DNA from: Escherichia phage BME3
Reading direction: 5' to 3' (one strand)
Sequence record: PP239276.1
Length of the DNA stretch: 64,000 nt
Made by a program: the position numbers and the translations under genes. Below the pieces are notes generated by a model that was given only the letters and a program-made list of their open reading frames with translations, did no database searches and was not told the DNA's origin. Shown in pieces: positions 1 to 14,006 of this stretch. Positions within the stretch are counted from its first letter, which is position 1, and each line of letters starts with the position of its first letter.

Positions 1-55
1 AACGCGATTTTCAGCGCCCCCCGATTTCTGCCGACCGTCCCCCTCAAATATCAAT

Positions 56-84
56 GAGAATAATTATCATTTGCATTATCATTC
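56..84. repeat. Fur-box-like AT-rich repeat (gagaataattatcatttgcattatcattc)
   Basis: Matches hexamer-repeat pattern of Fur box GATAATGATAATCATTATC at about 14/19; one of several related copies. Confidence 0.4.
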
Positions 85-250
85 AATGACTTATAAGACT
101 TTTGATTATTTTCTGAGCGAAAAAGGTGCTACTCACAACAAAACAGATAAATTCTAAGTAAATCAATGACTTGGCAAGTCTAAACATCTATATACACCTT
201 GCCAAATGAAATGATCCTGCGTGAAATAGTGCTACCCGTGGAAGATAGCT

Positions 251-271
251 GATAATGATTATCATTTGCAT
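251..271. repeat. Fur-box-like repeat (gataatgattatcatttgcat)
   Basis: 16/19 identity to Fur box consensus by eye. Confidence 0.45.
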
Positions 272-660
272 ATTTTCTATACTATAAAACGCCCTAAAAA
301 TCAAGATAATTCTACTTTATTGCGCTTTTAAGAAAGTAGGCTCAACAAATAGGGAGATACATTGCAACAAATAGGGGTAATTTTATCCAACAAATAACAA
401 CAAATAGTAAGTTATATGGGGCAATAGTATGAAAAATCATCTATTCAGATATAAATAATTTTGCGCAATAGTAGTAATATTTTCTTGACAAGAAAGATTT
501 CTTTGTGTTCACATAGCGCCCCCTGGAAGGTGGCGCATTATGATCATCGGTGTCATTATTCACGATGTTTACTATTGCATAGCTCATTATTTAGCTTATA
601 TTATAGCCAATGTTCTAAACATTAGCTAATAATAACGCACCGCAACAATGTAAGGGAATA

Positions 661-793
661 CAATATACCATGTATATTGTTGCGCTTGCAATTGTTGCAA
701 GCTACATAAGCACAAATAATAACTATCGGTGATAGTTATTATGTGGGGTGTGTAGTTGCGTTATTATTAGCCGCCTATGTGTCCGGCATAGGC
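661..793. repeat. Cluster of four inverted repeats in non-coding DNA
   Basis: caatatacc-atg-tatattg (661-679), cttgcaa-ttg-ttgcaag (685-701), aataactatc-ggt-gatagttatt (718-740), gcctatg-tgtccgg-cataggc (773-793). Confidence 0.5.
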
Positions 794-1161
794 TGCTAAT
801 GATACGCTTGCGAATTATATTTCTTGTTATAGTTATTGTATGAAATGATTACTGTATGAAATTGTTATTTAGGTAATAAATAGTAAGGTAAAGATTAGAT
901 CATAAATAGATAGGATATTAATTATTTAGCAATGTTACTAACAATTTAATAGTTACTTTGTGCAACAATTCGATAGATTATAGTTATAGTTTTAAAGGTT
1001 AGATAGATTATAGTTAGCTTAGTAATGATTTACATTGATTATTGTTGTTTAATATAAGGTTATCAATGAGATAGTAACAGTAAGTTATAAATAAAGGTGA
1101 GATAATTAGTTTTAATTTAGTTAGATAACTTATTATTTTATAGATTAGATGGTCATAAGTT

Positions 1162-1236
1162 AAGAATGATTATCATTATTGCATTATGCAGTTTATTGCA
1201 TAAATAATCAGCTATAAATAAGAATGATTATCATTT
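1162..1236. repeat. Two Fur-box-like repeats (aagaatgattatcattattgcat; agaatgattatcattt)
   Basis: Copies at 1162-1184 and 1221-1236 share the GAATGATTATCATT core. Confidence 0.4.
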
Positions 1237-1440
1237 AAGAGGAAAGACAAGAAAAAGGCTGTTTTTGCCAGATAGTTGCATGAAGAAATTAAAAATAAGC
1301 GGTCTAAAACACGCTGTAAGCGCCTTATGATCTTCATGGTATGGTTGTTCATCTGCTCCTTGATTAGCTCGATACCGCGATCTATTCACTTTTTTCGGTG
1401 AACGTTTTTGATAGGTAAAAGCTATCATCTTTATTTAGGT

Positions 1441-1467
1441 AAAAAGAAAGGGCGCTTTGTGCGCCCT
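1441..1467 (-). terminator. Rho-independent terminator after early gene 1483..1866
   Basis: Hairpin agggcgc-tttgt-gcgccct; T-tract follows on minus strand. Confidence 0.5.
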
Positions 1468-1482
1468 GGTGTGAAATGTTAT

Positions 1483-1866
1483 TTACTGATAAGCTGGATC
1501 GTTTGTTATATCAATCCAATGAGTTAAATTAATTTTATTTTTTGCTTTCATTTTCTCGATCAAACGTTCGGCTAATGTTTCTGAACGAATATAAACATAG
1601 TCGCTAAAATCTTGCCCCGTTTCTTCGTCGATCATCTCGCGATATTCAATTTTCCCGATAAACGCATGATTCAGCGCATAAGTTTTACCCGTGTACCAGT
1701 TGTGCAAATGAATCTCACATTTATAATCATCGCTATAACCTTCGGTTGTTCTAACTTCAACCAAGTCGCCTTTGAACACGGATAAGCACCACATAGGATC
1801 ACGATCTACAGCGCCGTTAAAATCTTTACCGTTTACAGTAGCCGCCAGGTTGATGATATTGCTCAT
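1483..1866 (-). CDS. hypothetical early protein (127 aa)
   Basis: ORF track 1483..1941 trimmed to ATG at 1866 preceded by RBS acgagg and a sigma70-like promoter. Confidence 0.6.
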   Translation of the reverse strand: MSNIINLAATVNGKDFNGAVDRDPMWCLSVFKGDLVEVRTTEGYSDDYKCEIHLHNWYTGKTYALNHAFIGKIEYREMIDEETGQDFSDYVYIRSETLAERLIEKMKAKNKINLTHWIDITNDPAYQ

Positions 1867-1912
1867 GGTGATTCCTCGTTTACCGTTTAAAATGATTTGC
1901 CCTACGTGATAA

Positions 1913-1941
1913 ATAATAATGTAAGCGTGATCCGGTGTCAA
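1913..1941 (-). promoter_or_regulatory. sigma70-like early promoter (TTGACA-17-TATTAT)
   Basis: -35 at 1936-1941, -10 at 1913-1918 on minus strand. Confidence 0.5.
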
Positions 1942-2284
1942 TAGGCGAGATTGTAAAGATTTGATAGTTTATTCCTTTGATGTTTTGTTGTTTGATAGGT
2001 GGAAGCTATCAATATATAGCGGGATCTTCCGGTGATTATCTTCCCCTGTCCCCAAGTGCCGCCCGTTCCATAATAATAATCAAAAGCAGAATAAAAGGCA
2101 AGATAAAAAGCAAATTATTTCCTATGTGCTTTAAACGCTCTAAACAGCTTTATAACAGCTTTTTCATCCTGGTAAGGGGATTAATCATTACTACCTTGTT
2201 TAAACGGTTACAATCGGTTTTAGGCTGTTTTACGCCACCTTTACGCCTATTCTTTACGTGTTGTTTCCATCGTGAAAAAAGAAT

Positions 2285-2316
2285 ACAAAAAAGGGCGCTT
2301 AGTGCGCCCCTTTCTT
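2285..2316. terminator. bidirectional hairpin terminator gggcgc-ttagt-gcgccc
   Basis: A-tract upstream and T-tract downstream; lies just after stop of 2327..2716 (-). Confidence 0.5.
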
Positions 2317-2326
2317 TTACCGTGTA

Positions 2327-2716
2327 TTAATATTCGTTATAATACATCGCTAACTTTTCATCAAAAGCCGCTTGACGATCTGCATACTCCCAAAACATTT
2401 CCTGATCCTGCTGGTCATCTTCATCCATCATGTTAAACTGTGCCACTTCCTGGTAAGTGATCGCCATATTATAACGATAGGTGATCTCTTCTGCGATGTT
2501 TTCCGGTAAAGATGATTCTACACTGTCTAACAGCATATTTAACATCATTTCAGCCGCTTTTTCATCATTATCAAAGCAGTAAGCAGACCATGCCGCATGA
2601 TGTTTATTTTTCATCTTTGCAATCAAGCCATTGACTAAAAAAGGCGCTACGTTGTTAACGATACCCTGCAAGGATTGGAATTTTTCAACGTTAGAAACAG
2701 AAACCAGGTTGCGCAT
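2327..2716 (-). CDS. hypothetical acidic early protein (129 aa)
   Basis: ORF track 2327..2776 trimmed to ATG at 2716 (MRNLVSV) downstream of leader hairpin; C-terminus rich in D/E. Confidence 0.6.
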   Translation of the reverse strand: MRNLVSVSNVEKFQSLQGIVNNVAPFLVNGLIAKMKNKHHAAWSAYCFDNDEKAAEMMLNMLLDSVESSLPENIAEEITYRYNMAITYQEVAQFNMMDEDDQQDQEMFWEYADRQAAFDEKLAMYYNEY

Positions 2717-2739
2717 AGTATTTACCTTTTTGATTACCT

Positions 2740-2800
2740 GGCGGGAAACCATTTCCCGCCCTATGTGGTAAATCATACCATATTGGGGATCGGTGTCAAT
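2740..2800 (-). promoter_or_regulatory. early promoter plus leader hairpin module
   Basis: TTGACA (2795-2800), 17 nt spacer, TATGAT (2772-2777), box ttaccacatagg, perfect hairpin ggcgggaaaccatttcccgcc (2740-2760). Confidence 0.6.
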
Positions 2801-2805
2801 ACTTT

Positions 2806-3192
2806 TTATTCAATATAAATCAAATTATCTTCACCAATGTAAGCATGCACCGATGGCATTAATTTAGCTGCATTTGTTAGGCGGTTGGCGGTGTTAGTAG
2901 TGTATATTTCAGGGCGATCCCAAAAACCTATGCCGTGACCGTTACGGGTGAAATGTAAGTCATTCCCGATCTGGTTTGCTGTAGCGCCGTCGCTCATTGC
3001 CTCAGAGATAGCGGCAACATTGGCACTACAAAAGGCGGTCACATCGCTGGTAATACGTTTCAGGGCGCTAGAAGAAAAATCATAATCGTCTAGATTCTCA
3101 ATATATTCCCCATTGTGATCCGTCGCTGGTTCGGCAAAAATAAAGGCTTCTTTATAGCCGTTGATCATTTCGTTAATGATTTCAGTTTTCAT
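2806..3192 (-). CDS. hypothetical early protein (128 aa)
   Basis: ORF track; start overlaps stop of upstream gene (ATGA). Confidence 0.6.
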   Translation of the reverse strand: MKTEIINEMINGYKEAFIFAEPATDHNGEYIENLDDYDFSSSALKRITSDVTAFCSANVAAISEAMSDGATANQIGNDLHFTRNGHGIGFWDRPEIYTTNTANRLTNAAKLMPSVHAYIGEDNLIYIE

Positions 3193-3413
3193 GCTGTACG
3201 CTCGACAATAATAATGGTTTGCGGGATCTCGTTTTCTACTACTAACAAGGCTTTTTTCTGTGTGATAGATATTTTAACACGTTGTAAAGTAGCGGTGAAA
3301 TCTTTCATTTCGTCACGTGGTGTTTTAGTGCAATGCCAGATCTCAGGTTTACCTATTTGCAAGCCGCGTAAAAATTCTGTTTTACCTGTCTTATTCGTGA
3401 TCACTTGTTTCAC
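3189..3413 (-). CDS. hypothetical small early protein (GTG start; alternative GTG at 3404)
   Basis: ORF track; translationally coupled to 2806..3192. Confidence 0.45.
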   Translation of the reverse strand: MKQVITNKTGKTEFLRGLQIGKPEIWHCTKTPRDEMKDFTATLQRVKISITQKKALLVVENEIPQTIIIVERTA

Positions 3414-3414
3414 C

Positions 3415-3519
3415 TTAGCCGATACCGTGGGAAGATAGAATCATGTTAGCCATAGTTGCAATCACTCCAACCGATAACGCCAGGCCCACTATTGCAACCG
3501 TGAAAATTTTCTCTAACAT
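3415..3519 (-). CDS. 34-aa hydrophobic peptide MLEKIFTVAIVGLALSVGVIATMANMILSSHGIG
   Basis: Hand-translated; below the 60-aa ORF-track cutoff; sits behind its own promoter/leader module. Confidence 0.35.
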   Translation of the reverse strand: MLEKIFTVAIVGLALSVGVIATMANMILSSHGIG

Positions 3520-3537
3520 GATGCTACCCTCATTAGT

Positions 3538-3600
3538 GGGCGTTGCCTTATTGCCCCGCCCTATGTGATACATATTATCAGCTTATTAGCCGTTGTCAAT
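3538..3600 (-). promoter_or_regulatory. early promoter plus degenerate leader hairpin
   Basis: TTGACA (3595-3600), TAATAT -10, box gtatcacataggg, hairpin gggcg...cgccc. Confidence 0.5.
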
Positions 3601-3704
3601 CACTTTTTTAAACTTCTTTCAAAGAGAAGATCATCGATCTCAGAAACAATAAGCGTTATCAAAGGAATAATAACCGCCGCGCACATCATGGTAAGAATAA
3701 TCAT
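3600..3704 (-). CDS. 34-aa hydrophobic peptide MIILTMMCAAVIIPLITLIVSEIDDLLFERSLKK
   Basis: Hand-translated; single predicted TM helix; downstream of module 3724-3782. Confidence 0.35.
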   Translation of the reverse strand: MIILTMMCAAVIIPLITLIVSEIDDLLFERSLKK

Positions 3705-3723
3705 TTTAGTTCTCTCTATTCTG

Positions 3724-3782
3724 GCGGGAAACCATTTCCCGCCCTATGTGGTACACTTTACCAGATAACCGCATATTGTCAA
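3724..3782 (-). promoter_or_regulatory. early promoter plus leader hairpin module
   Basis: TTGACA (3777-3782), TAAAGT (3755-3760), box gtaccacataggg, hairpin ggcgggaaaccatttcccgcc (3724-3744). Confidence 0.6.
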
Positions 3783-3783
3783 A

Positions 3784-4053
3784 CTATTTTTTCAAGCTCG
3801 ACCAGTCAAAACACGGGGCGATCTCGTTAAAACTTGTACCCTGTAAAGCACATAATTTTTTAGCAATAGCCGCCGTAACCTGGCGTTGTACGCGCGGATC
3901 TGCTACTGATTGGAGAAAATAGGCGGTTTTATACGTGATCATGCTTTCGCCCGTTTCTTTGTTAATATGATGCACTATTTTAGCTTTATCATCTTTCACC
4001 AGGGTGTAACCGGATTCGATGGCCTTGATTGCAACGTCCAATGATATTTTCAT
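3784..4053 (-). CDS. hypothetical early protein (89 aa)
   Basis: ORF track; leader hairpin ggcgggg-n7-ccccgcc (4074-4094) and RBS aagagg upstream. Confidence 0.6.
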   Translation of the reverse strand: MKISLDVAIKAIESGYTLVKDDKAKIVHHINKETGESMITYKTAYFLQSVADPRVQRQVTAAIAKKLCALQGTSFNEIAPCFDWSSLKK

Positions 4054-4101
4054 GATTTACCTCTTTATTGACGGCGGGGAATACTCCCCCCGCCTTATTA
4101 A

Positions 4102-4272
4102 TTACTCTTCATCGTCGCCGTTATAGTATTCAATGCCGTTTTCATCGGTTACAGTAATGTTAACGCCACCGATAGCAACACGATCACGGGCAAACGTCAT
4201 GGCTTCATTTAAATCTTCAGACCAAAAAATATTGTGACCTTTGCGCGATACGTAAAACATAGTTGGGATCAT
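4102..4272 (-). CDS. hypothetical early protein (56 aa)
   Basis: ORF track 4102..4302 trimmed to ATG at 4272 (MIPTMFYV) after leader hairpin. Confidence 0.5.
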   Translation of the reverse strand: MIPTMFYVSRKGHNIFWSEDLNEAMTFARDRVAIGGVNITVTDENGIEYYNGDDEE

Positions 4273-4293
4273 GATTTGTTTCTCTTCTGTTAT

Positions 4294-4351
4294 GAGCGGC
4301 ACTATTGCCGCCCTATGTGATAAACTTTACTACGTTGTTTGCCTAGTGTCA
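4294..4351 (-). promoter_or_regulatory. early promoter plus leader hairpin module
   Basis: TTGACA (4346-4351), TAAAGT (4324-4329), box ttatcacataggg, hairpin gcggca-atag-tgccgc. Confidence 0.6.
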
Positions 4352-4353
4352 AA

Positions 4354-4638
4354 TTATTTTTTAATGTTTTGCCCTACAAAATTAATCACTTCCTTAAGCT
4401 GTTTCTCAGTCATGATCGTGCCTGGCAATTCTTCTTTGATTTCTTCCGGTAGATAGATATTACCGCGCCAGGTTAATAAACAACCGTTTTGATCTTCACA
4501 GATAGAATAAGAGAAGATCCACTCATTATCATTCTCAAGCTCCCAAAAGCACAAAAAATCTTCTTTCCCCAGGTTTTCAACGGATAAGCATAATCCGCGA
4601 CGTGCTGCATAGTTGGAAAGTGCTTTTGTGATCTTCAT
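4354..4638 (-). CDS. hypothetical early protein (94 aa)
   Basis: ORF track; ATG at 4638 follows leader hairpin and promoter. Confidence 0.6.
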   Translation of the reverse strand: MKITKALSNYAARRGLCLSVENLGKEDFLCFWELENDNEWIFSYSICEDQNGCLLTWRGNIYLPEEIKEELPGTIMTEKQLKEVINFVGQNIKK

Positions 4639-4657
4639 ATCTTATCTCTTCTGTTAA

Positions 4658-4720
4658 GGCGGGGAAACCATTTCCCCGCTCTATGAGATACAATATACTC
4701 CTTATCAGGTGTGCTGTCAA
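4658..4720 (-). promoter_or_regulatory. early promoter plus leader hairpin module
   Basis: TTGACA (4715-4720), 17 nt, TATATT (4692-4697), box gtatctcatagag, hairpin cggggaaaccatttccccg. Confidence 0.6.
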
Positions 4721-5044
4721 TCAATAATCTTCAATATTTTCTACATTGACAAAAGCATGTTTATTTTCTAAGTTTTCGCCGTACCATTGCCCCATGTTGA
4801 TTTCTGCGGTGCGTAACCAGGACATGCCGCGTTCTATCTTTTTGCTCGCAATGTCGATCCGGCTTTTGCATAGTGCTTTAGCTTGCAATGTAAAAACATT
4901 ATTGCCATGTAATGCTTCCAGGTCATCATGTGCAAGGCGATACTCTTTAAAGCCTGATTCTATCATTTCAATCGCATCAAGGAAACGAGCGCGATGATAG
5001 AAAAAATCAGAGTTATCCAAATAAACACCGATCACAGATTTCAT
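4721..5044 (-). CDS. hypothetical early protein (107 aa)
   Basis: ORF track 4721..5104 trimmed to ATG at 5044 (MKSVIG) with RBS aaaaggg. Confidence 0.55.
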   Translation of the reverse strand: MKSVIGVYLDNSDFFYHRARFLDAIEMIESGFKEYRLAHDDLEALHGNNVFTLQAKALCKSRIDIASKKIERGMSWLRTAEINMGQWYGENLENKHAFVNVENIEDY

Positions 5045-5144
5045 AATTTTACCCTTTTGTTTGCGGCCTTTGCCGTTTTCAAGATATAGTTTAAAGCATA
5101 ACAAAAAATTGTCAAGCCTTTAAAGCGTACAACTATAAAACCTA

Positions 5145-5264
5145 TTAAAACACAATGCATAACAACATGGTTATAGTAGCAATACAACATAAAGCCATGC
5201 TTGTTTTCCTTCCTTCCTCGTATGCTGGATTTATTACGCTATATTGTACGGGAATAATTTTCAT
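5145..5264 (-). CDS. possible 39-aa peptide
   Basis: Hand-translated ORF with RBS aagga; weak support. Confidence 0.25.
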   Translation of the reverse strand: MKIIPVQYSVINPAYEEGRKTSMALCCIATITMLLCIVF

Positions 5265-5273
5265 GCTGTTTCC

Positions 5274-5369
5274 TTAATGTCTTAAAACGTGGTTTACAAT
5301 AGAAACAAGTATACAGAAGAAAAAAGATCCTGACAATAAGATCCCGAAAAATAAATGTAAATAGGGCAT
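5274..5369 (-). CDS. 31-aa hydrophobic peptide MPYLHLFFGILLSGSFFFCILVSIVNHVLRH
   Basis: Strong RBS aaggag 7 nt upstream of ATG; hand-translated. Confidence 0.35.
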   Translation of the reverse strand: MPYLHLFFGILLSGSFFFCILVSIVNHVLRH

Positions 5370-5373
5370 GGTT

Positions 5374-5676
5374 TTACTCCTTAAAAAAATCATTGACAAT
5401 TAAACTGATAACGCCCAGCACCAGATCACCAGGTAGCGCCGCGCTTTCGTTGTTGCTTGTTTGCACTTCCTCACTAGTACCAGCATGATAGATCGCATGG
5501 TAAGCAATAGTATAATAACCTTTCGTTATTTCTTTAAGATTAATGATTAGCACGTTATTTGTTTCATCTTGAAACAATTTAGCGGTGATAGTATTGTTTT
5601 CTTTTACACTATCGACTTTTATTGATGGATCATTTACACCAGAAAAAAGAAAAAACGTTTTAGCTATGCCGTTCAT
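5374..5676 (-). CDS. hypothetical early protein (100 aa)
   Basis: ORF track; RBS aaaggaga; promoter upstream. Confidence 0.6.
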   Translation of the reverse strand: MNGIAKTFFLFSGVNDPSIKVDSVKENNTITAKLFQDETNNVLIINLKEITKGYYTIAYHAIYHAGTSEEVQTSNNESAALPGDLVLGVISLIVNDFFKE

Positions 5677-5688
5677 GTAGTTCTCCTT

Positions 5689-5717
5689 TGTTGTGTGTAT
5701 CTTATAACGTGCTTTCT
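5689..5717 (-). promoter_or_regulatory. sigma70-like early promoter (TTGACA-17-TAAGAT)
   Basis: -35 at 5712-5717, -10 at 5689-5694; no leader hairpin. Confidence 0.5.
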
Positions 5718-5723
5718 ATGTTG

Positions 5724-6125
5724 TCAATCTTTTATTTCGGTGCATTTTGCTAGGGTATACGTTGCAAGTGCTGCCACTAGTTTTTCATTGCTACGATCTG
5801 CGGCTGTACTGTGTACTTTTTGAATACTTTTTAACCACGGTGTAAAATTTTGAGTAGTCAGCACACTAGTAATAATTTCACATGGTACATCTTCATTTAA
5901 GCCATTAACAATAGATTTATCTATTTTTGCCGTTAGTTGTGTAACAGCACCATAAGCGATCATGTGTGAATCCTCCATGATTTCATCGGGGATCGCATTA
6001 TTAATAAGCATGACGTTTTCCATTGCATCAACGGCGCTTAATTCTGCTACTGTGGAGGATATCGCCGCGCTAGATGTTCCAACCATGCCAAAAGAGATTA
6101 AACCAGCGATCAATAATTTTTTCAT
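5724..6125 (-). CDS. secreted early protein (134 aa)
   Basis: ORF track trimmed to MKKLLIAGLISFGMVGTSSAA signal-peptide-like N-terminus. Confidence 0.6.
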   Translation of the reverse strand: MKKLLIAGLISFGMVGTSSAAISSTVAELSAVDAMENVMLINNAIPDEIMEDSHMIAYGAVTQLTAKIDKSIVNGLNEDVPCEIITSVLTTQNFTPWLKSIQKVHSTAADRSNEKLVAALATYTLAKCTEIKD

Positions 6126-6133
6126 TTCTTGCC

Positions 6134-6316
6134 TCATATATGTTTTATTGAGATTATATTGTCACTATATACAACGTTTTTCAACGTGTCAATAAAAATC
6201 TTATTGCCTTCAATCCCCAGGATCACGCCGCTAGTTATAAAGCCATATTGATCACGATATCGGGCGCATAACCTTTGCCCCTGGGCTAGTGCCTTGCTTA
6301 TTTCGTCTAATTTCAT
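6134..6316 (-). CDS. hypothetical small protein (60 aa)
   Basis: ORF track; RBS acaggag. Confidence 0.45.
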   Translation of the reverse strand: MKLDEISKALAQGQRLCARYRDQYGFITSGVILGIEGNKIFIDTLKNVVYSDNIISIKHI

Positions 6317-6406
6317 TTTTAAAGCTCCTGTAAAGCTGTCTAACGTGGTTTATAGGCTTATCCTGGCGTTACCATTGCCTATGGGTAACAAGCCTCTATA
6401 TAAGCT

Positions 6407-6433
6407 AAAAGGGCGCTTATTGCGCCCTTTTTT
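6407..6433. terminator. bidirectional hairpin terminator gggcgc-ttat-tgcgccc
   Basis: Flanked by A-tract and T-tract. Confidence 0.5.
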
Positions 6434-6434
6434 G

Positions 6435-6572
6435 TTATTCGTTCCAGTATCTTTTTGTGCTGCGATCTCTTTTTGTTTTGTTCCGCTTGTCGCCTTTTTT
6501 GGTGATCTCTTCGTTCCAATCTTTACGCGCTTTGTTGCGGTTGAATTTTTCGATCTGCTGTGATGCGTTCAT
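6435..6572 (-). CDS. possible 45-aa basic protein
   Basis: Hand-translated (MNASQQIEKFNRNKARKDW...); RBS agagga; ends at terminator. Confidence 0.35.
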   Translation of the reverse strand: MNASQQIEKFNRNKARKDWNEEITKKGDKRNKTKRDRSTKRYWNE

Positions 6573-6587
6573 GTTTCTTCCTCTTAA

Positions 6588-6947
6588 TTACGCCACGTTG
6601 TGCTGTTTTGCCAGGGTTACGATCATGCTTGCAATATATAACCAATAATTTTCCCGCTCACGGGTAACGGTTGTTTCTTTGCTTGTTTCTTTTATGTACT
6701 TCCATTCAATTAATAATTGATCGATCTCGTTATAATTAAAAGCTATATTTATTTCTGACGGTAAACCTTGTAACCAGCTTTTAACAGCTTGTACCATGTT
6801 GTTATTATAACGATCACGATTAGATTGATACCAGTATTCAGAATTAAAACGGCGCATCAGTTCGGTGATTTTTTCTTTTTCGGTTGTAGTACCATCAAAA
6901 GAAATAGCCGACAAAATGTAAGTTTTAATTGCTTTTGCTGATTTCAT
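6588..6947 (-). CDS. hypothetical early protein (119 aa)
   Basis: ORF track; preceded by module 6969-7026. Confidence 0.6.
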   Translation of the reverse strand: MKSAKAIKTYILSAISFDGTTTEKEKITELMRRFNSEYWYQSNRDRYNNNMVQAVKSWLQGLPSEINIAFNYNEIDQLLIEWKYIKETSKETTVTRERENYWLYIASMIVTLAKQHNVA

Positions 6948-6968
6948 AATCTTATCTCTTTATTGATG

Positions 6969-7026
6969 GCGGGAAACCATTTCCCGCCGTTGTTGTCACT
7001 TTACTTATAAATGATGCTACTGTCAA
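6969..7026 (-). promoter_or_regulatory. early promoter plus leader hairpin module
   Basis: TTGACA (7021-7026), 17 nt, TAAAGT (6998-7003), hairpin ggcgggaaaccatttcccgcc (6969-6989). Confidence 0.6.
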
Positions 7027-7033
7027 GCGAATA

Positions 7034-7204
7034 TTATTTATTTTTTAGCGTTAACGTTCCCAGCTTATCAGCGTGACGCAGACCAGGGAAGATCCATTTA
7101 CCTGATTCATCTTTTACCGGGGCTTTAAGCGTAGCGCCCAGGTTGGCGGCGTTAACTTTACGTGCAACGTTGCGAGCGGCTTCACGGGTAGCGAAAGTGA
7201 TCAT
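7034..7204 (-). CDS. possible 56-aa protein
   Basis: Hand-translated; leader hairpin ggcggtgg-n-ccaccgcc and TTGCAA-17-TAAACT promoter upstream. Confidence 0.4.
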   Translation of the reverse strand: MITFATREAARNVARKVNAANLGATLKAPVKDESGKWIFPGLRHADKLGTLTLKNK

Positions 7205-7295
7205 GATGTTTTCCTCTTCTCTTTGTTAGGCGGTGGGCTATTCCACCGCCTTGATGAATACAGTTTACTTTATTTTTGCAGTATTGCAAGCGGTT

Positions 7296-7511
7296 TTATG
7301 AAATAAATGTCAAAGTAAAATCATAATCTTTTGATAGTTTATATTGCACCTTGTTACCGTATATGTCACCTTTACGTAAAGATCCACGGATACCGATAAC
7401 ATCTTTCACATCTTTAAGATTTTTCACGCCTGTAATATCTTTATTAAAATATTCGTCATCTGAAAATAAAACTTGCTTTGCATTTTTTAACAAGGTGCGG
7501 ATATTAGCCAT
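7296..7511 (-). CDS. hypothetical early protein (71 aa)
   Basis: ORF track 7296..7559 trimmed to ATG at 7511 (MANIRTLL). Confidence 0.55.
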   Translation of the reverse strand: MANIRTLLKNAKQVLFSDDEYFNKDITGVKNLKDVKDVIGIRGSLRKGDIYGNKVQYKLSKDYDFTLTFIS

Positions 7512-7532
7512 GATGATTTCTCTTTTAGTTGT

Positions 7533-7590
7533 GAGCGGCACTATTGCCGCCCTATGCATTACATTTTACTGATTTTAGTTATCTTGTCAA
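7533..7590 (-). promoter_or_regulatory. early promoter plus leader hairpin module
   Basis: TTGACA (7585-7590); hairpin family gagcggcactattgccgccc (also at 4294 and 11175). Confidence 0.55.
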
Positions 7591-7598
7591 GATTATTT

Positions 7599-7826
7599 TT
7601 AGTTTAATCCATCCAGGCACAACAAGCGATCAACATTCAGATCGGTTAGGCTAATCGTTGGCACCTGGTAGGATTCGATGTACTCAACGCTCGACCATTG
7701 CCCAAAGTTAGCGACCGCCCAGCTATTCAAGGAGGAGTGAAGATCATCCCCTTTCTTCTCGGTGATAACTGCTACTACCTGGGAGATTCCAACCGTACCG
7801 GATACGCGAACAATAACGATAGCCAT
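7599..7826 (-). CDS. hypothetical early protein (75 aa)
   Basis: ORF track. Confidence 0.55.
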   Translation of the reverse strand: MAIVIVRVSGTVGISQVVAVITEKKGDDLHSSLNSWAVANFGQWSSVEYIESYQVPTISLTDLNVDRLLCLDGLN

Positions 7827-7848
7827 AATTATAACCTTTCTTTGATTT

Positions 7849-7908
7849 GGCGGGAAACCATTTCCCGCCTTATGTGATATATCTTACACTAATTTAAAAC
7901 GTTGTCAA
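7849..7908 (-). promoter_or_regulatory. early promoter plus leader hairpin module
   Basis: TTGACA (7903-7908), TAAGAT, box atatcacataagg, hairpin ggcgggaaaccatttcccgcc (7849-7869). Confidence 0.6.
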
Positions 7909-8003
7909 ATTATTTTCTATTTCTTCCGTAATAGCCCAATTTATGATCTAAGCTAAAACGTTTTGTGAGATAGGTCGAACGATGTTTCATTTTTATGTCT
8001 CCT

Positions 8004-8243
8004 TTACATTCCAACCATAGCGGCACGGATCGCGGTTTTACTGAACTTGAATCCGTCTGGCGTTTTATCTTGATCCATACTTTCAAGAAATAACATCATA
8101 TCCCGCGCTGCGTCATTTTTATTGGTGTTAGCTGCGATAAATTCACGCGCAAGATTATAAAAACCTTCATCGTTGTTGATCCAAAGGCTTACATTCCAAT
8201 GAGTTTTATTTTTGTGACCGTTGTACATTTTAGATTTAGCCAT
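8004..8243 (-). CDS. hypothetical early protein (79 aa)
   Basis: ORF track 8004..8300 trimmed to ATG at 8243 (MAKSKMY) after leader hairpin. Confidence 0.55.
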   Translation of the reverse strand: MAKSKMYNGHKNKTHWNVSLWINNDEGFYNLAREFIAANTNKNDAARDMMLFLESMDQDKTPDGFKFSKTAIRAAMVGM

Positions 8244-8264
8244 GATGTTAATCTCTTTTTCAGT

Positions 8265-8326
8265 GAGGCGGGAACTATTCCCGCTCTCGATGTAAACCAT
8301 TATATAGTAATAAAATACTTTGTCAA
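8265..8326 (-). promoter_or_regulatory. early promoter plus leader hairpin module
   Basis: TTGACA (8321-8326), 16 nt, TATAAT; hairpin gcgggaa-cta-ttcccgc. Confidence 0.6.
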
Positions 8327-8328
8327 TA

Positions 8329-8511
8329 TTATTTTTTGGAAAGTTTACGCATTAATTCTACGCTTTCTTGTGAACGTTTCGCTACCTGGCAAGCTGCATG
8401 GGTAGTGAACATTTTTGTATAGTCTGACGGTTTGCCACCGAACTTAGCGGCACGTTCACGGGCACTTGGAACTAATACTATTTCTTTCTTACAGATAGTG
8501 CATTTAGCCAT
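8329..8511 (-). CDS. hypothetical small protein (60 aa)
   Basis: ORF track. Confidence 0.5.
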   Translation of the reverse strand: MAKCTICKKEIVLVPSARERAAKFGGKPSDYTKMFTTHAACQVAKRSQESVELMRKLSKK

Positions 8512-8530
8512 TTTTATTTCTCTCTTTGTT

Positions 8531-8593
8531 AGGAGGGGAAACCGTTCCCCGTCCTGATGTGATACAGTTTACTCTTTTTATTCGTGCTGTCAA
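8531..8593 (-). promoter_or_regulatory. early promoter plus leader hairpin module
   Basis: TTGACA (8588-8593), TAAACT; hairpin ggggaaaccgttcccc. Confidence 0.55.
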
Positions 8594-8599
8594 TACTTT

Positions 8600-8965
8600 T
8601 TATAAATCTTTTTTACGTTTTACATCGCTTGCATGACTGTATACAGTGATCCCATTGTCACGGCAAAAACGGGAAAGATAAGCATAATTTGAAAACTCTT
8701 TACCTTCCAGGTTGATAACCTTGCTAAACTCTTCCAGGGCGACGGTATCAAAATGATCACCATAACCATATTGAAACGGAACGTTAACGACTTCAATCAG
8801 TTTACCGCCGATCTCAACGTCAACCATCAAAGAGAAATAAGTATTACCATAAGACTTTTGAAACCAGCGACGGGCGCTAATATGTACCGCTTCAATGCTG
8901 GATAGTTCAATTTTAGCAGTGTTAGCCAGGGTAGCATAAGCAGAAACATTGATATTTTTAGCCAT
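8600..8965 (-). CDS. hypothetical early protein (121 aa)
   Basis: ORF track. Confidence 0.6.
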   Translation of the reverse strand: MAKNINVSAYATLANTAKIELSSIEAVHISARRWFQKSYGNTYFSLMVDVEIGGKLIEVVNVPFQYGYGDHFDTVALEEFSKVINLEGKEFSNYAYLSRFCRDNGITVYSHASDVKRKKDL

Positions 8966-9012
8966 AGTCTTTAATCTCTTTTGATTAGTTAGGAGTATTC
9001 CCGATAAAAGTT

Positions 9013-9041
9013 ATTATGCTTGTACTATCGTTCGTTGTCAA
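9013..9041 (-). promoter_or_regulatory. sigma70-like early promoter (TTGACA-17-CATAAT)
   Basis: -35 at 9036-9041, -10 at 9013-9018. Confidence 0.45.
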
Positions 9042-9060
9042 TAGCACAAGACTAAAACTT

Positions 9061-9240
9061 TTAACGATAATCATCATATGCTTTATTGACCTGGCGAATA
9101 TAGCTTTCAAAAGCTAGATCAATAGATTTATATTCACGGATATAATCACCATAGGAAACCACATACATTTCTATAGCTTCCTCATATGCCAGGATGATAG
9201 AATCTAAACCTACGATCTCAGTCTTTGCAATAATAGCCAT
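9061..9240 (-). CDS. possible 59-aa protein
   Basis: Hand-translated (MAIIAKTEIVGLDSIILAYEE...); RBS aaggaa; TTGACA-16-TATAAT promoter at about 9268-9295. Confidence 0.4.
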   Translation of the reverse strand: MAIIAKTEIVGLDSIILAYEEAIEMYVVSYGDYIREYKSIDLAFESYIRQVNKAYDDYR

Positions 9241-9387
9241 GCTTTTATTCCTTAGTAATGTTTCAATCTATATAAGCATTATAGCTTACTGATTTCAGGT
9301 GTCAAGTGATTTTTTATTTCACTTTATGGGGGCGTTGCCCCGCTCTATGTGGTATATATTACGGGGCTTGTTTGCATATGTCAAGCC

Positions 9388-9942
9388 TTACACAATGCAA
9401 TTTTCATAATTTTCTAAGGCTTGTCTTTTTTCCTCTTCCGTTGGCATGTATGGCTGGATCTCTTCCTCTTCCAGGGTAGACATGATTTCTTCCTCTTCCT
9501 CCTGGTCGCCCTGGTCTTCCTCTTGCGCTATGGTAACAAGTTTATTGATCTTCTCCTGGGCTTTAATCAATTTTGCATCTAGCACCATTTTAGCGGTGTT
9601 GTATACCGTCCATGCCATGCGCTTTTCTTCGTATGCCTTATCTAGTGCGGCTAATTTAGCGGGATACTCTTCCAACACCTTAAAAGCCGGATCAATGCTG
9701 TATAAGGGATTATTTTTAGCGTCATCGCTTGGATCTGCGGCGCTTGCAATGTCAGCGTTACCATTCGCCAGCCATCCAGGGCGAACGGATCGTGTCCTGG
9801 TGTTGCCGTTGCTCTTTGCCGCTCGATTTCCTATCTGCTCCCCGCTATACCCTACCATGTGATCGATCATGTCATCTGGTATTATGCGCGGATCATTAGC
9901 ATCATGCTTTACCCAGGACTGGATCACATATTCACGCCCCAT
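9388..9942 (-). CDS. hypothetical early protein with poly-acidic C-terminal region (184 aa)
   Basis: ORF track; EEDQGDQEEEEEIMSTLEEEE stretch. Confidence 0.6.
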   Translation of the reverse strand: MGREYVIQSWVKHDANDPRIIPDDMIDHMVGYSGEQIGNRAAKSNGNTRTRSVRPGWLANGNADIASAADPSDDAKNNPLYSIDPAFKVLEEYPAKLAALDKAYEEKRMAWTVYNTAKMVLDAKLIKAQEKINKLVTIAQEEDQGDQEEEEEIMSTLEEEEIQPYMPTEEEKRQALENYENCIV

Positions 9943-9943
9943 G

Positions 9944-10204
9944 TTAGTTCGCCTCTTCTGTTAGTAGTTTACATACCTTAAACATGCTTGCCGCGTCTTT
10001 TGACGGTAGCCAGCCTATGCGATACACTCCAGGGCCTGGGTTAGTTATATCCGTTAATTGAGCGTTACGATGATTAAAGATAGTGTAACCGCCGCCAGCA
10101 CGGGGATAAACATTATCTTTAAACCTGATAGCGTATCTCGCCAGGTCGAACGTTGTAGCATGTTCAAAAGCGATCACATTATCAAAAACTTTTAGAAAAA
10201 ACAA
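9944..10204 (-). CDS. hypothetical early protein (86 aa, TTG start)
   Basis: ORF track; start codon reads TTG with strong RBS ggagga 5 nt upstream. Confidence 0.5.
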   Translation of the reverse strand: MFFLKVFDNVIAFEHATTFDLARYAIRFKDNVYPRAGGGYTIFNHRNAQLTDITNPGPGVYRIGWLPSKDAASMFKVCKLLTEEAN

Positions 10205-10221
10205 GATTATCCTCCCCAGCG

Positions 10222-10353
10222 TTTAAAGCCCGTTGCACGGTTGTTTTTTAGCTCTCGTTTTAGTCTCTTGCAACGGTTTACAAGTGCAAACCGTGCCGGA
10301 GTCGTAACAGTAGCGCCGTTTTTGGTATGAATACTCATTACATATTGTTTCAT
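10222..10353 (-). CDS. possible 43-aa basic Cys-rich peptide
   Basis: Hand-translated (MKQYVMSIHTKKRRYCYDSGTVCTCKPLQETKTRAKKQPCNGL); follows module 10372-10425. Confidence 0.3.
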
Positions 10354-10371
10354 AAAGTTTTATCCTATGTA

Positions 10372-10425
10372 AGCGGGAACTATTCCCGCTTTAAGATAGC
10401 TTATCAGGTTTTAGTGCAATGTCAA
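10372..10425 (-). promoter_or_regulatory. early promoter plus leader hairpin module
   Basis: TTGACA (10420-10425), 16 nt, TAAGCT; hairpin agcgggaa-ctat-tcccgct. Confidence 0.5.
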
Positions 10426-10431
10426 CCGTTT

Positions 10432-10794
10432 TTATTCGTAAATTTTACCGCTTTCTACCCATACCATAACACGGCGCATGTTATCCCATGCATCTTGTCG
10501 CAGATTTAAGGCATGCAATTCTTCCGTGGTGCTCATGCCTGGCACGGGCTTGCTATATGTTACAAAAAGATCGCCAGCATATTCATAAGCCAGAGTAAGA
10601 TCACATTGAATCATCTTTTTAATCATAGCATTAAGCATCATATTAGCGGCATGTTGATCACGTTTTAGCGGTAGCGTTGCGATCTGTGAGCGATAGCTTT
10701 CGATACGTGCATCCACTGCATCACGCGAAAGATTTTTCACGTCATCGCGGAAAGATACCAGGTTAAACATTATAGTATTGATTTGCTTGCTCAT
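10432..10794 (-). CDS. hypothetical early protein (120 aa)
   Basis: ORF track. Confidence 0.6.
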   Translation of the reverse strand: MSKQINTIMFNLVSFRDDVKNLSRDAVDARIESYRSQIATLPLKRDQHAANMMLNAMIKKMIQCDLTLAYEYAGDLFVTYSKPVPGMSTTEELHALNLRQDAWDNMRRVMVWVESGKIYE

Positions 10795-10817
10795 TGTGTT
10801 ACCCTTTCTTTGATTTG

Positions 10818-10876
10818 GCGGGAAACCATTTCCCGCCTTATGTGGTATATATTACTAAATTATTTTTCAGTGTCAA
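10818..10876 (-). promoter_or_regulatory. early promoter plus leader hairpin module
   Basis: TTGACA (10871-10876); box ataccacataagg; hairpin ggcgggaaaccatttcccgcc (10818-10838). Confidence 0.6.
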
Positions 10877-10879
10877 GTC

Positions 10880-11152
10880 TTAAAGCAAAAACGCTACATC
10901 TTTCGCTTTTAGTGTAGTGTCAATCATGTTCGGGCTTTTATAATCCACAAAGCGCGCGGTTTTTTCAATAGCGAAACCGAGATAATCTTGCTTATTGAAG
11001 TTACATTCTTTTTTAAATGTTTCCCGTGCCACTGTGATCGCTGCGTCCAGGGATAAACGCCCGTCAATGTTGATGTTAGCGAAAGATCCGCCACCGCGCA
11101 TAGGTTTACCAGTGATACCCATTACGATCATTGATGCGCTATATGATGCCAT
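10880..11152 (-). CDS. hypothetical early protein (90 aa)
   Basis: ORF track. Confidence 0.6.
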   Translation of the reverse strand: MASYSASMIVMGITGKPMRGGGSFANINIDGRLSLDAAITVARETFKKECNFNKQDYLGFAIEKTARFVDYKSPNMIDTTLKAKDVAFLL

Positions 11153-11174
11153 GATTATTTCTCTCTTCTGTTAT

Positions 11175-11236
11175 GAGCGGCACTATTGCCGCCCCTCGAC
11201 AAGATGAATACTACGCTACCAGGTGAGGAACGTCAA
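11175..11236 (-). promoter_or_regulatory. outermost early promoter plus leader hairpin
   Basis: TTGACG (11231-11236), 17 nt, TAGTAT (11208-11213), hairpin gagcggcactattgccgccc. Confidence 0.55.
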
Positions 11237-11271
11237 CCATTTTTTTAATCTTTTTTTCATTTCTTTTTTGC

Positions 11272-11300
11272 TTGCTATCTATAAAGGAAACGGCTATTAT
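11272..11300 (+). promoter_or_regulatory. divergent sigma70-like promoter (TTGCTA-17-TATTAT)
   Basis: -35 at 11272-11277, -10 at 11295-11300, upstream of ATG 11348. Confidence 0.45.
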
Positions 11301-11347
11301 CTTTCTACCGCGCCAACCAGGGCGCACATCAAAGAAAGGGCGATACC

Positions 11348-11614
11348 ATGACAAATACTCCTTTACATCTCATGCACTCATTGGGCTGGCAAGGCGGCAC
11401 GGTGCACCAGGTAGCAAGCGCAACGGGCTTAAAGGTTGAAACCGTTCTCAACCTGGGCGATCATAAAGTGGAAGAGATAGAACATTTTGATCCGTTCGCT
11501 GATGGTTATCTATGGGCTTGCAGTGGCGGTGGGGAAAGCAAGATCCCACCAGGGGCGCGGGGCGACATGTATTTTTGGTTAGGTGTCCTATCCTGGCAAG
11601 AAAACAAAAAATAA
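11348..11614 (+). CDS. hypothetical protein (88 aa)
   Basis: ORF track; RBS aaagaaaggg. Confidence 0.55.
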   Translation: MTNTPLHLMHSLGWQGGTVHQVASATGLKVETVLNLGDHKVEEIEHFDPFADGYLWACSGGGESKIPPGARGDMYFWLGVLSWQENKK

Positions 11615-11616
11615 TC

Positions 11617-11645
11617 TTGACAAGCCCAGGGATCGGGCTTATACT
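11617..11645 (+). promoter_or_regulatory. strong sigma70-like promoter (TTGACA-17-TATACT) with no obvious downstream ORF
   Basis: -35 at 11617-11622, -10 at 11640-11645; spacer contains hairpin agccc-n7-gggct. Confidence 0.45.
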
Positions 11646-11875
11646 GTTTTACATACAGAAGAGGAAGCGCCACCCCCACGGCGTAAAGGCGGGGCTAACA
11701 TACCAGGGGGCACTGGTTGGAAGGTTGATCGCCGGTAGCTCGTCTAAAATAAATTTGTAAAGAAATGTAAAGATAAAAATAATCGCTTGCTTTTGTTGTT
11801 GGTTATGCTATTCTTATTGTATGGCGAGGGGACACGGGAGCGCGAGACAAACACCACCCCTGCGCGTTATTCTCT

Positions 11876-11990
11876 AAATGAGAAAAATTCTCATTTGCTA
11901 ATGATTCTCATTCTCTTAGTGAGAATGATTATCACTTACATAATTAAATGATAATGATTCTCATTTACAAATGAGAATGATTATCATCCG
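11876..11990. repeat. Array of Fur-box-like palindromes
   Basis: aatgagaa/ttctcatt, tcattctc-ttagt-gagaatga, tctcattt-aca-aaatgaga; gagaatgattatca core recurs. Confidence 0.5.
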
Positions 11991-12010
11991 CACACCCATA
12001 AAAACACGAA

Positions 12011-12225
12011 ATTGAACTTTTCATTTTTGATTTTTCTACGGAAAAAGGCAAAAAAACTTTAAATAAACTGGGGAATTTTTTAAAAATTGAAGTTTTCATT
12101 TTCAAAATCTGGATAGAAATACATACAAAAACTTTAAATAATTTTGACCAAACTTGAACTTTTCATTTTCAAAATTTGTATCCAAAAATCTGTAAAAACT
12201 TTAAATAATTTTGTCCTTTTTATAA
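12011..12225. repeat. Three imperfect tandem repeats of about 68-75 bp
   Basis: Units start near 12011, 12086, 12153; each has ttgaacttttcattttcaaaat and aaaactttaaataa. Confidence 0.6.
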
Positions 12226-12427
12226 AAATGATTTTACTGTTCTGTTATAAATAGTAGTTAAGAGATAGTATGCCTTTTAAAAACCAGATATCATAATCCA
12301 ACAAACAAATTAAATAATTTATTAACAGAGTACAAAATAATATTTACTCTGAATATATTATTCAGAGGGTGAATTTCCGTACATGAAACCCACACCCCTT
12401 TTTATAAAAATAAAAATTTTCAAAATA

Positions 12428-12979
12428 TCAGGAAATATCAGATTGTGCTTTTAGATAAACAGCAAGGTCTGTATGCCATTTTCCTAAAAGATTTTGTCCT
12501 TTCCAACAGTCCTTATTTTCCACGTCACGATCCCACATCCCCATTTTGATACCATAAATAGAATCATAAGGGCTTGCCTCTACGAACTCCTTATCTGCGT
12601 AGGTTATAAGTTTATTTTTGAGATCTTCATTTTGTGTGTATTTAAGATACAAACCACGTTTGACAATCTTCTCCCGTAAAGAAGTCCAGGTATCTTCATC
12701 ATAATCTTTAACTAATCTGCCTAGTCGCTTATAATATGCTTGTTCTTTTTCTCCTGTATATCTTAGATCTCCGGTTAAAATAGAAGATGCAATACTGTAA
12801 TCATAAAACAAACATGCTTTTCTCCACATCATATATTGTTCCACACAAGTAAATTCAACAGAACTTGTAATAGAATTATTATACTTGGGTGCTAAAGGTT
12901 CAATAAAAGATGATAGATACCAGTTGCTAAATTCATCTTTTGCTGAAAAGAAGAACACATACTTATCAGTAATCCGCAT
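12428..12979 (-). CDS. NADAR-domain (YbiA-like) protein
   Basis: FFFSAKDEFSNWY, CVEQYMMWRKA and GMWD motifs fit NADAR pattern; TAA-ATG coupling to upstream gene. Confidence 0.6.
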   Translation of the reverse strand: MRITDKYVFFFSAKDEFSNWYLSSFIEPLAPKYNNSITSSVEFTCVEQYMMWRKACLFYDYSIASSILTGDLRYTGEKEQAYYKRLGRLVKDYDEDTWTSLREKIVKRGLYLKYTQNEDLKNKLITYADKEFVEASPYDSIYGIKMGMWDRDVENKDCWKGQNLLGKWHTDLAVYLKAQSDIS

Positions 12980-13969: not shown

Positions 13970-14006
13970 CTACTACTCCTCTTATTAAATCTGGCATTAA
14001 TGCAAG

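Follow-up and report, generated by a model that had tools for sequence, protein, structure and literature searches.

According to our analysis, the AT-rich non-coding DNA at one end of Escherichia phage BME3 (sequence record PP239276.1) contains a group of near-consensus Fur boxes, and a second, denser array of the same element is found further inside the analyzed stretch of 64,000 nucleotides, called here the window. The explanation that we favor, with moderate confidence, is that these boxes are high-affinity operators for host Fe2+-Fur dimers, kept in two promoter-rich non-coding control regions and acting in cis on early transcription. More generally, the comparisons described below suggest that large lytic phages probably either make use of the iron regulator of their host or sequester it.

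The initial annotation had listed four copies of a Fur-box-like repeat in the first 1.2 kb, and all four are present: at 56–71 (GAGAATAATTATCATT), at 251–266 (GATAATGATTATCATT, exact) and, as AAGAATGATTATCATT, at 1162–1177 and 1220–1235; only the position given for the last one, 1221–1236, was off by one. The better register for the element is the inverted repeat TGATAAT-N-ATTATCA (7-1-7), which we scored out of 14 with the centre base free, so that the odd A of the first copy lands on the free centre position. The 19-bp Fur consensus GATAATGATWATCATTATC was also used for scoring, out of 19. In the 7-1-7 register, box 1 (TGAGAATAATTATCA, 55–69) matches at 13/14 and box 2 (TGATAATGATTATCA, 250–264) is perfect (14/14; 17/19 to the 19-bp box), while boxes 3 and 4 share the sequence TAAGAATGATTATCA and match at 12/14 (1161–1175, with 16/19 to the 19-bp box, and 1219–1233). 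The earlier estimate that the best copy agrees with the E. coli Fur box at about 16/19 positions is correct for GATAATGATAATCATTATC, and the figure rises to 17/19 when the centre of the palindrome is taken as A/T. These boxes, like those of the second array, are given without a strand.

As a list for positions 1–1240 the four copies were right, but the denser second array at 11879–11986 had been missed. It consists of five tandem boxes, at 11879–11893 (11/14), 11896–11910 (12/14), 11920–11934, 11949–11963 and 11972–11986 (13/14 each), with centre-to-centre spacings of 17, 24, 29 and 23 bp. Expected numbers of sites were derived from shuffles of each local AT-rich stretch in which the dinucleotide composition was kept. 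At a threshold of at least 12/14, the region 1–1240 has 4 sites against 0.08 expected, and none of 2000 shuffles reached 4; the region 11850–12000 likewise has 4 sites, against 0.017 expected. The pattern of the initial annotation, with up to two mismatches allowed, gave 13 strand-hits in the 64 kb against 0.21 expected. The sites are also strongly clustered: 8/9 of those in the window belong to the two clusters, and all seven that reach at least 15/19 fall in the same two places (three in the terminal region, four in array 2). The whole 148-kb genome of the relative alia has 11 sites at or above 12/14, eight of them in the same two clusters and three as scattered singles, with no further Fur-box cluster.

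Several lines of evidence identify the element. The background of the Fur box consensus reportedly goes back to de Lorenzo in 1987, Escolar in 1998, and Baichoo and Helmann in 2002. As a benchmark, we took the best site in each of 11 textbook K-12 Fur promoters (fepA-fes, entS, entC, fhuA, ryhB, fur, tonB, exbB, fecI, fecA, and cirA). These score 12–16/19 (median 14) and 9–13/14 (median 11), as against 14–17/19 and 12–14/14 for the phage boxes. When the consensus sequences of 12 E. coli regulators were compared, Fur had a mean match of 0.90 and the eleven others at most 0.75; Zur, ArgR, LexA, MntR, NrdR, CRP, FNR, ArcA, DnaA, and IHF were all rejected as clearly poorer fits. Secondary sites shifted by 6 bp overlap box 2 (256–270, 11/14) and box 3 (1167–1181), which is the hexamer periodicity of classical Fur operators. 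Other phage arrays contain units such as TGATAATGATAATCATTCTCA, and the copies differ at the unconstrained centre of the 7-1-7 element, which may be A, G or C.

A link to iron regulation was also found outside phages. The exact extended phage element, the 19-mer AATGAGAAT(G/C)ATTATCATT, was found in over 120 bacterial genomes from many phyla. We collected 126 open reading frames (ORFs) with starts at most 350 bp downstream of the element, and they are dominated by TonB-dependent receptors (10), Fur (4 genes), FeoA/FeoB and other iron proteins, among them TonB, periplasmic siderophore- and iron-binding proteins, SitA/ZnuA-like and EfeO-like proteins, ferritin, and rubrerythrin. Thus the earlier suggestion of Fur boxes is borne out by near-consensus matches that surpass those of host sites, by the best fit among 12 regulators, by the iron-uptake genes that follow the 19-mer and by the kept positions described below. 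Judged by sequence, the repeats are at the level of proven sites and the identity of the element as a Fur box is solid; binding of the boxes by host Fur is very likely.

The window represents the end of a phi92-like myovirus genome (Justusliebigvirus, Stephanstirmvirinae). Its positions 1–1500 are matched by 71 phage records, all of the phi92 group and with 90–97% identity, and they align with the right end of phi92, taken as its reverse complement, at 93% identity. The phi92 record annotates a 343-bp direct terminal repeat at its right and left ends. Because the window aligns to that right end, its positions 1–343 (no strand) can be taken as the terminal repeat, which holds boxes 1 and 2; the boundary in the window agrees with the start sequence of phi92. 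The last phi92 gene before the right-end repeat is gp248, which encodes a Gp30.8-like protein, and the corresponding part of the window, 344–1480, is non-coding DNA downstream of this last gene, whose terminator is at 1467–1449 on the minus strand. The statement that the surrounding 1.2 kb has no convincing ORF agrees with our result for 1–1480, in which no ORF exceeds 65 aa and the curated phi92 record annotates no gene. The region is less a “leader” than the 343-bp direct terminal repeat together with the adjoining non-coding DNA. In phi92, the second copy of the repeat precedes gp001 by ~350 bp, and gp001 opens a series of 36 small genes on one strand (gp001–036); the same junction is seen in a circularly permuted relative. 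The G+C content of the DNA around the boxes is 24.8–32.6%. No tRNA was found in the window with ARAGORN, and an Rfam scan of positions 1–14000 (E ≤ 1) returned three sub-threshold chance matches, none of them at either cluster.

Between boxes 1 and 2, a consensus scan picked out a sigma-70-like promoter on the minus strand (177–205, TTGGCA-17-TAGACT), which in phi92 reads TTGACA-17-TAGACT. This candidate promoter is predicted to face the first early operon, which starts with gp001 and is located at the opposite genome end. Relative to it, box 2 lies ~90 bp upstream and box 1 ~100 bp downstream. Box 4 overlaps a weak -10-like hexamer located 18 bp after TTGCAT (1196–1201), a putative promoter read by eye.

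The initial annotation had proposed a comparison with the genome ends of related phages, and in this comparison the boxes were present and their positions kept across two genera. Box 1 is identical in seven genomes of the two genera. In these genomes, the spacing between boxes 1 and 2 (179–195 bp) and between boxes 3 and 4 (58–60 bp) is nearly constant, and the boxes persist though their distances to an internal anchor shift through insertions and deletions. Box 3 is part of a 114-bp block (1156–1269) that is identical in three Justusliebigvirus genomes. In Phapecoctavirus 536P1, which belongs to a different genus, the homologues of both regions contain the sites. Although identity to the window in the terminal region is no more than ~50%, this genome retains box 1 (identical), box 2 (13/15 positions) and box 4. 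The Phapecoctavirus form of box 4, TGATAATGGTTATCA (13/14), has three base differences, and these go toward the consensus. On the evidence of these alignments, the boxes are under positional selection. An IMG/VR scan anchored on the terminal region added only three loci.

Array 2 is located in a 0.8-kb intergenic stretch between a small plus-strand ORF (11348–11614) and a minus-strand NADAR gene (12428–12979); the record of phage muut labels the array only as “repeat_region.” The array belongs to a module of fixed order. It opens with the strong promoter-like site P1 (11617–11645, plus strand, TTGACA-17-TATACT, 11/12 match), which heads a conserved non-coding segment of ~130 nt, followed by the promoter-like site P2 (11787–11814, plus strand, TTGCTT-16-TATTCT, read from the sequence), a 64-nt G+C-rich leader capable of forming a hairpin, and the first Fur box. 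This box begins 64 nt after the -10 hexamer of P2, which places the array at ~+57 from P2. After the array there are a third promoter-like site and lineage-specific iteron-like repeats. In the window these are three direct repeats of ~70 bp, iteron- or promoter-like (12009–12229, plus strand, right after array 2), which contain TTGAACTTTTCATTTTCAAAAT...AAAAACTTTAAATAA. The repeats after the array are specific to lineages and the Fur boxes are not: other rV5-like lineages carry there, for example, cgatcgagacccc / gagaatacg.

The ~130-nt segment and the 64-nt leader retain 70–85% identity from Stephanstirmvirinae to Vequintavirinae. The segment, which contains the motifs cgccaccccacggcgtaaaggcggggctaac...gatcgccggtagctcg...tttgtaaagaaatgtaaaga, has no Rfam match (within 11617–11878), and covariation among its 16 pairs, with 1 compensatory change, is uninformative at such a degree of conservation. 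The stretch 11617–11878 may be an element of an origin or encode a so far unnamed non-coding RNA of the phage. P2, the leader and the first box are in register in 13 lineages of the rV5-like superfamily, whose hosts include Cronobacter, Klebsiella, and Raoultella, and the number of boxes beyond the first one varies among these lineages from 0 to 4. With one primary site fixed and the auxiliary sites variable, the arrangement looks more like an operator acting in cis than like a mere decoy.

Based on these observations, the following scenario is proposed for the operators. In iron-replete cells, Fe2+-Fur would probably occupy the boxes and, once bound, would act in cis on the neighboring host-type promoters. 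It might operate as a roadblock or repressor, a role made possible by the location of the boxes at ~+57 from P2 and at ~+100 and -90 from the terminal-repeat promoter. Alternatively, it might serve as an insulator that keeps H-NS off the AT-rich DNA, as at ftnA. Either way, a part of early phage transcription would follow the iron status of the host, and the soaking up of Fur during genome multiplication would be a by-product or a second function.

A number of points weigh against this scenario. Fur binding and its effects on expression are predictions from sequence, all the promoters are consensus guesses, and the Fur and other consensus sequences, as well as the benchmark genes, were taken from established literature, not from a curated matrix. 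The promoter scan of 1–1600 gave 7 sites against 11 expected from shuffles; since scans in such AT-rich DNA yield no more than shuffles do, the promoter positions of cluster 1 are not fixable in this way. Only box 4 overlaps a predicted -35/-10 pair, at its -10-like hexamer, and the remaining boxes, which are located at the distances from P2 and from the terminal-repeat promoter given above or upstream of the third promoter-like site, are not at the classical repressor position. Furthermore, it is not obvious how a lytic phage would benefit from slowing its early transcription in iron-replete cells, and the near-consensus strength of the sites and the many-site arrays would suit a decoy no less than an operator.

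The element is not confined to the phi92 group. A blastn search with the array alone matched 358 phage records, and the carriers of arrays include phi92-like and rV5-like phages, T5-like phages (in the injection-stop region), RaK2-like jumbo phages and many uncultured viral contigs. The terminal repeats of T5-like phages contain the same element in their large non-coding repeat region, between paired DnaA boxes and “tgtgcaaatccgac” repeats; examples are Gostya9 (NC_047979.1, ~7350–7610; 1340–1610 of our locus L003) and BF23 (OR083247.1, ~9100–9250; 1420–1570 of L142). This region of T5, with its DnaA boxes, has been discussed as an injection stop signal in a preprint that mentions the DnaA boxes and unnamed palindromes, but not Fur (Davison, 10.1101/866236). 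The Klebsiella jumbo phage Muenster has five Fur boxes inside its annotated terminal repeat (MT708547.1, ~785–1180; 1222–1620 of L004), ~0.8–1.1 kb from the left end of the genome. One of them lies 63 nt after a TTGACT-16-TATAAT promoter, a distance like that from P2 to the first box of array 2, and the leader shares “atag(a)cggg(g)ag” and “ccggagac” with the leaders of P2 in rV5-like phages, a hint that the module is shared or was exchanged.

An exact-match scan of IMG/VR extended this picture to at least 120 loci with G+C contents from 21% to 56%. Among the matches listed, 25 have at least three sites within 300 bp, and some loci contain 5–11 boxes, spaced 25–45 bp apart, inside G+C-rich DNA. 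Two array-bearing loci are distantly related to phages of Vibrio, Alteromonas, Pseudoalteromonas, and Edwardsiella and have their arrays near terminase genes; in L008 and L056, the array is within 1.4–2.1 kb of the matched terminase region. With respect to the hosts of the uncultured array-bearing contigs, blastn gave only distant phage matches or nothing. Arrays of 4–11 near-perfect boxes were observed in the uncultured contigs L008, L015, L016, L027, L030, L054, L056, L064, and L107 (21–54% G+C), with spacings of 25–45 bp and in some cases as AT-rich islands within G+C-rich surroundings. Since the element is common to all these phages, its binder is most simply a conserved host protein. We tentatively suggest, as a broader and clearly less probable proposal than the operator function itself, that Fur-box arrays represent a shared, possibly horizontally exchanged device of large virulent Enterobacterales phages, which would recruit or sequester Fur as a sponge or as a host factor for origin function or DNA entry. 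Such arrays are also present in many uncultured phages of other Proteobacteria.

Titration of Fur had already been raised in the initial annotation. According to this explanation, which we regard as rather unlikely as the main function, the boxes would mainly titrate Fur as the phage genomes multiply, derepressing the Fur regulon (iron uptake, sparing by RyhB) and feeding iron enzymes such as ribonucleotide reductase. Multicopy Fur boxes are known to derepress Fur-controlled genes, as exploited in the Fur titration assay, phage genomes reach high copy numbers in lytic growth, and a cell contains ~5,000–10,000 Fur molecules. The sites are stronger than those of the host, there are 9 of them per unique genome and 2 more in the second copy of the repeat, and multi-site arrays recur in many unrelated phages; by a rough calculation, ~11 sites in 100–200 genomes binding 2–4 monomers each would be of the order of the Fur pool. 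However, the positions of the boxes with respect to promoters and the genome end have been kept over long evolutionary distances, which a pure decoy would not need, and several lineages retain just one or two boxes at array 2. In addition, T5 destroys the host DNA within minutes of infection, and a sponge would therefore be of no help to this phage, for which derepressed host genes are useless; in general, the effect would come late in infection. The Fur titration assay itself offers a similar arrangement, with high-affinity boxes on a replicon that reaches high copy number, but it is a laboratory cloning artefact and not a natural strategy, and titration by a phage is hypothetical.

Somewhat less probable still is an architectural function, in which Fur, or the competition of Fur with H-NS, would shape a nucleoprotein complex for the initiation of replication, for the processing of the terminal repeat or packaging, or for DNA entry. 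The distribution of the arrays points in this direction: in phi92-like, T5-like, and RaK2-like phages they are found close to or at the ends of the genome or within terminal repeats, and in the two uncultured contigs near terminase genes, and each physical end of the virion DNA has a box 55–90 bp from the tip. Promoters before array 2 and lineage-specific iteron-like repeats after it make an origin-like layout, and the T5-like array adjoins the paired DnaA boxes of the injection-stop region. Nevertheless, Fur is not known to take part in replication, packaging or injection, these phages have neither mapped origins nor mapped packaging signals, and the association with genome ends may merely reflect the location of long non-coding regions.

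The last of the three options in the initial annotation, operators for a phage-encoded DNA-binding protein with a specificity resembling that of Fur, is improbable and the least likely of the three, because the element is found alike in phage families that are not related to one another, and none of the sequences searched encodes a Fur homologue. In its favor, phage operators typically take the form of palindromic repeats in early control regions, and most ORFs of these phages have no known function. On the other hand, the families that have the element in common differ in gene sets, the contigs that carry it differ widely in base composition, and the exact sequence marks iron genes in bacteria. 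A tblastn search with E. coli Fur of two full genomes of relatives and the window gave no match below E = 6. In the six window ORFs that flank the clusters and in the “DNA binding protein” of Cronobacter phage CR9, Pfam revealed GP30.8, NADAR, CapR/T5orf172, and pyrimidine-dimer glycosylase domains and no domain of a sequence-specific regulator, although an unrecognized binder is conceivable. Finally, the notion that the boxes are AT-rich, -10-like repeats that arose from base composition and have no specific function, which could appeal to the 25–32% G+C of the surrounding DNA and to the resemblance of Fur boxes to -10 hexamers, is effectively refuted by the shuffling results and by the retention of the boxes while their flanks diverge.

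The operator function, which we prefer, can be compared with several known systems. The classical E. coli Fur boxes (“iron boxes”), such as the aerobactin iucA operator and those of the ent/fep promoters, have the same 19-bp palindrome or 7-1-7 arrangement and the same 6-bp periodicity, and the phage core TGAGAAT-C/G-ATTATCA is that of the iucA site. Unlike them, the phage boxes are in non-coding DNA of a virulent phage with no iron gene nearby, are closer to the consensus and mostly do not cover a -35/-10 pair. At ftnA, upstream Fe2+-Fur sites displace H-NS (anti-silencing) without contact to RNA polymerase (Nandal et al., 2010, as reviewed in PMC3788343). The layouts are alike in having several Fur sites upstream of or beside promoters, predicted ones in the phage, in AT-rich DNA prone to H-NS binding; the phage clusters have tandem sites in DNA of 25–32% G+C. 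In contrast, ftnA has weak matches, with no site at 10/14 or above in the ~320 bp before the gene, and the phage sites are near-perfect; an involvement of H-NS in the phage is conjectural.

Fur boxes have previously been reported from temperate lambdoid phages, in which they control the cargo genes sitABCD (PMC6969025). These boxes, too, tie phage DNA to the host Fur regulon, but they are single operators at promoters of iron or toxin cargo genes in lysogens, in contrast to arrays in the control regions of virulent phages. The stx1 promoter has another such phage-borne cargo-gene Fur box. A parallel to the arrays in their setting is repeat region 3 of T5, the injection-stop region, in which a Fur-like array lies next to paired DnaA boxes; both are conserved non-coding DNA full of sites for host factors and of direct repeats. 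They differ in that this phi92-like phage is not known for two-step injection and that the flanking repeats are unrelated.

Few bacterial regulators have been studied as thoroughly as Fur, and T5 belongs to the oldest phage models. In the full-text literature that we searched, we came across no account of arrays of Fur boxes in the non-coding control DNA of virulent phages. The topics covered were Fur boxes in phages, the promoters of phi92 and rV5, T5 and Fur, Fur titration and phage, ftnA and H-NS, and the Fur regulon during phage infection, and nothing came up but the Fur boxes of cargo genes in lambdoid phages and general reviews of Fur. If Fur binds the boxes, infection by phi92/rV5-like, T5-like, and Klebsiella jumbo phages, which are therapeutically relevant, would be linked to the iron status of the host, and this status differs sharply between laboratory broth and infected tissue. 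Binding would also provide a candidate ligand for the unexplained palindromes of the T5 injection-stop region, and the arrays would then represent a natural transcription-factor decoy or insulator on a virus. Should the arrays be a device shared among these phages, they would form a virus–host interface through a global metal regulator, of which we likewise found no description.

Several additional observations were made in the two regions. Between boxes 2 and 3, at ~598–806 on the plus strand, there is a conserved, putatively heavily base-paired element with a consensus fold of -70 kcal/mol. Of its 78 pairs, 9 show compensatory changes when Justusliebigvirus is compared with Phapecoctavirus, a comparison of only two independent lineages and hence weak evidence, and several G-U pairs can form only if the plus strand is read; the element may be a non-coding RNA or a DNA cruciform. 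A Shine-Dalgarno-like AAGAGG comes after box 4; a small gene at this position was considered and dropped, as the 30-codon ORF behind AAGAGG is present only in Phapecoctavirus and is not kept in the window. Downstream of the gp248 terminator, the non-coding block 1284–1435, which includes the hairpin TGATAGgtaaaagCTATCA, is near-identical in three Justusliebigvirus genomes and partly kept in Phapecoctavirus.

Four records that are labelled “Campylobacter phage” with the host C. jejuni (MG065639.1, MG065645.1, MG065656.1, and MG065689.1) are 95.6% identical to this E. coli phage group over the terminal region, and their host labels look doubtful. Beyond array 2, the NADAR gene is adjoined by a minus-strand gene (12980–13969) for a protein of 329 aa in which a CapR homology domain is accompanied by a weak T5orf172 domain.

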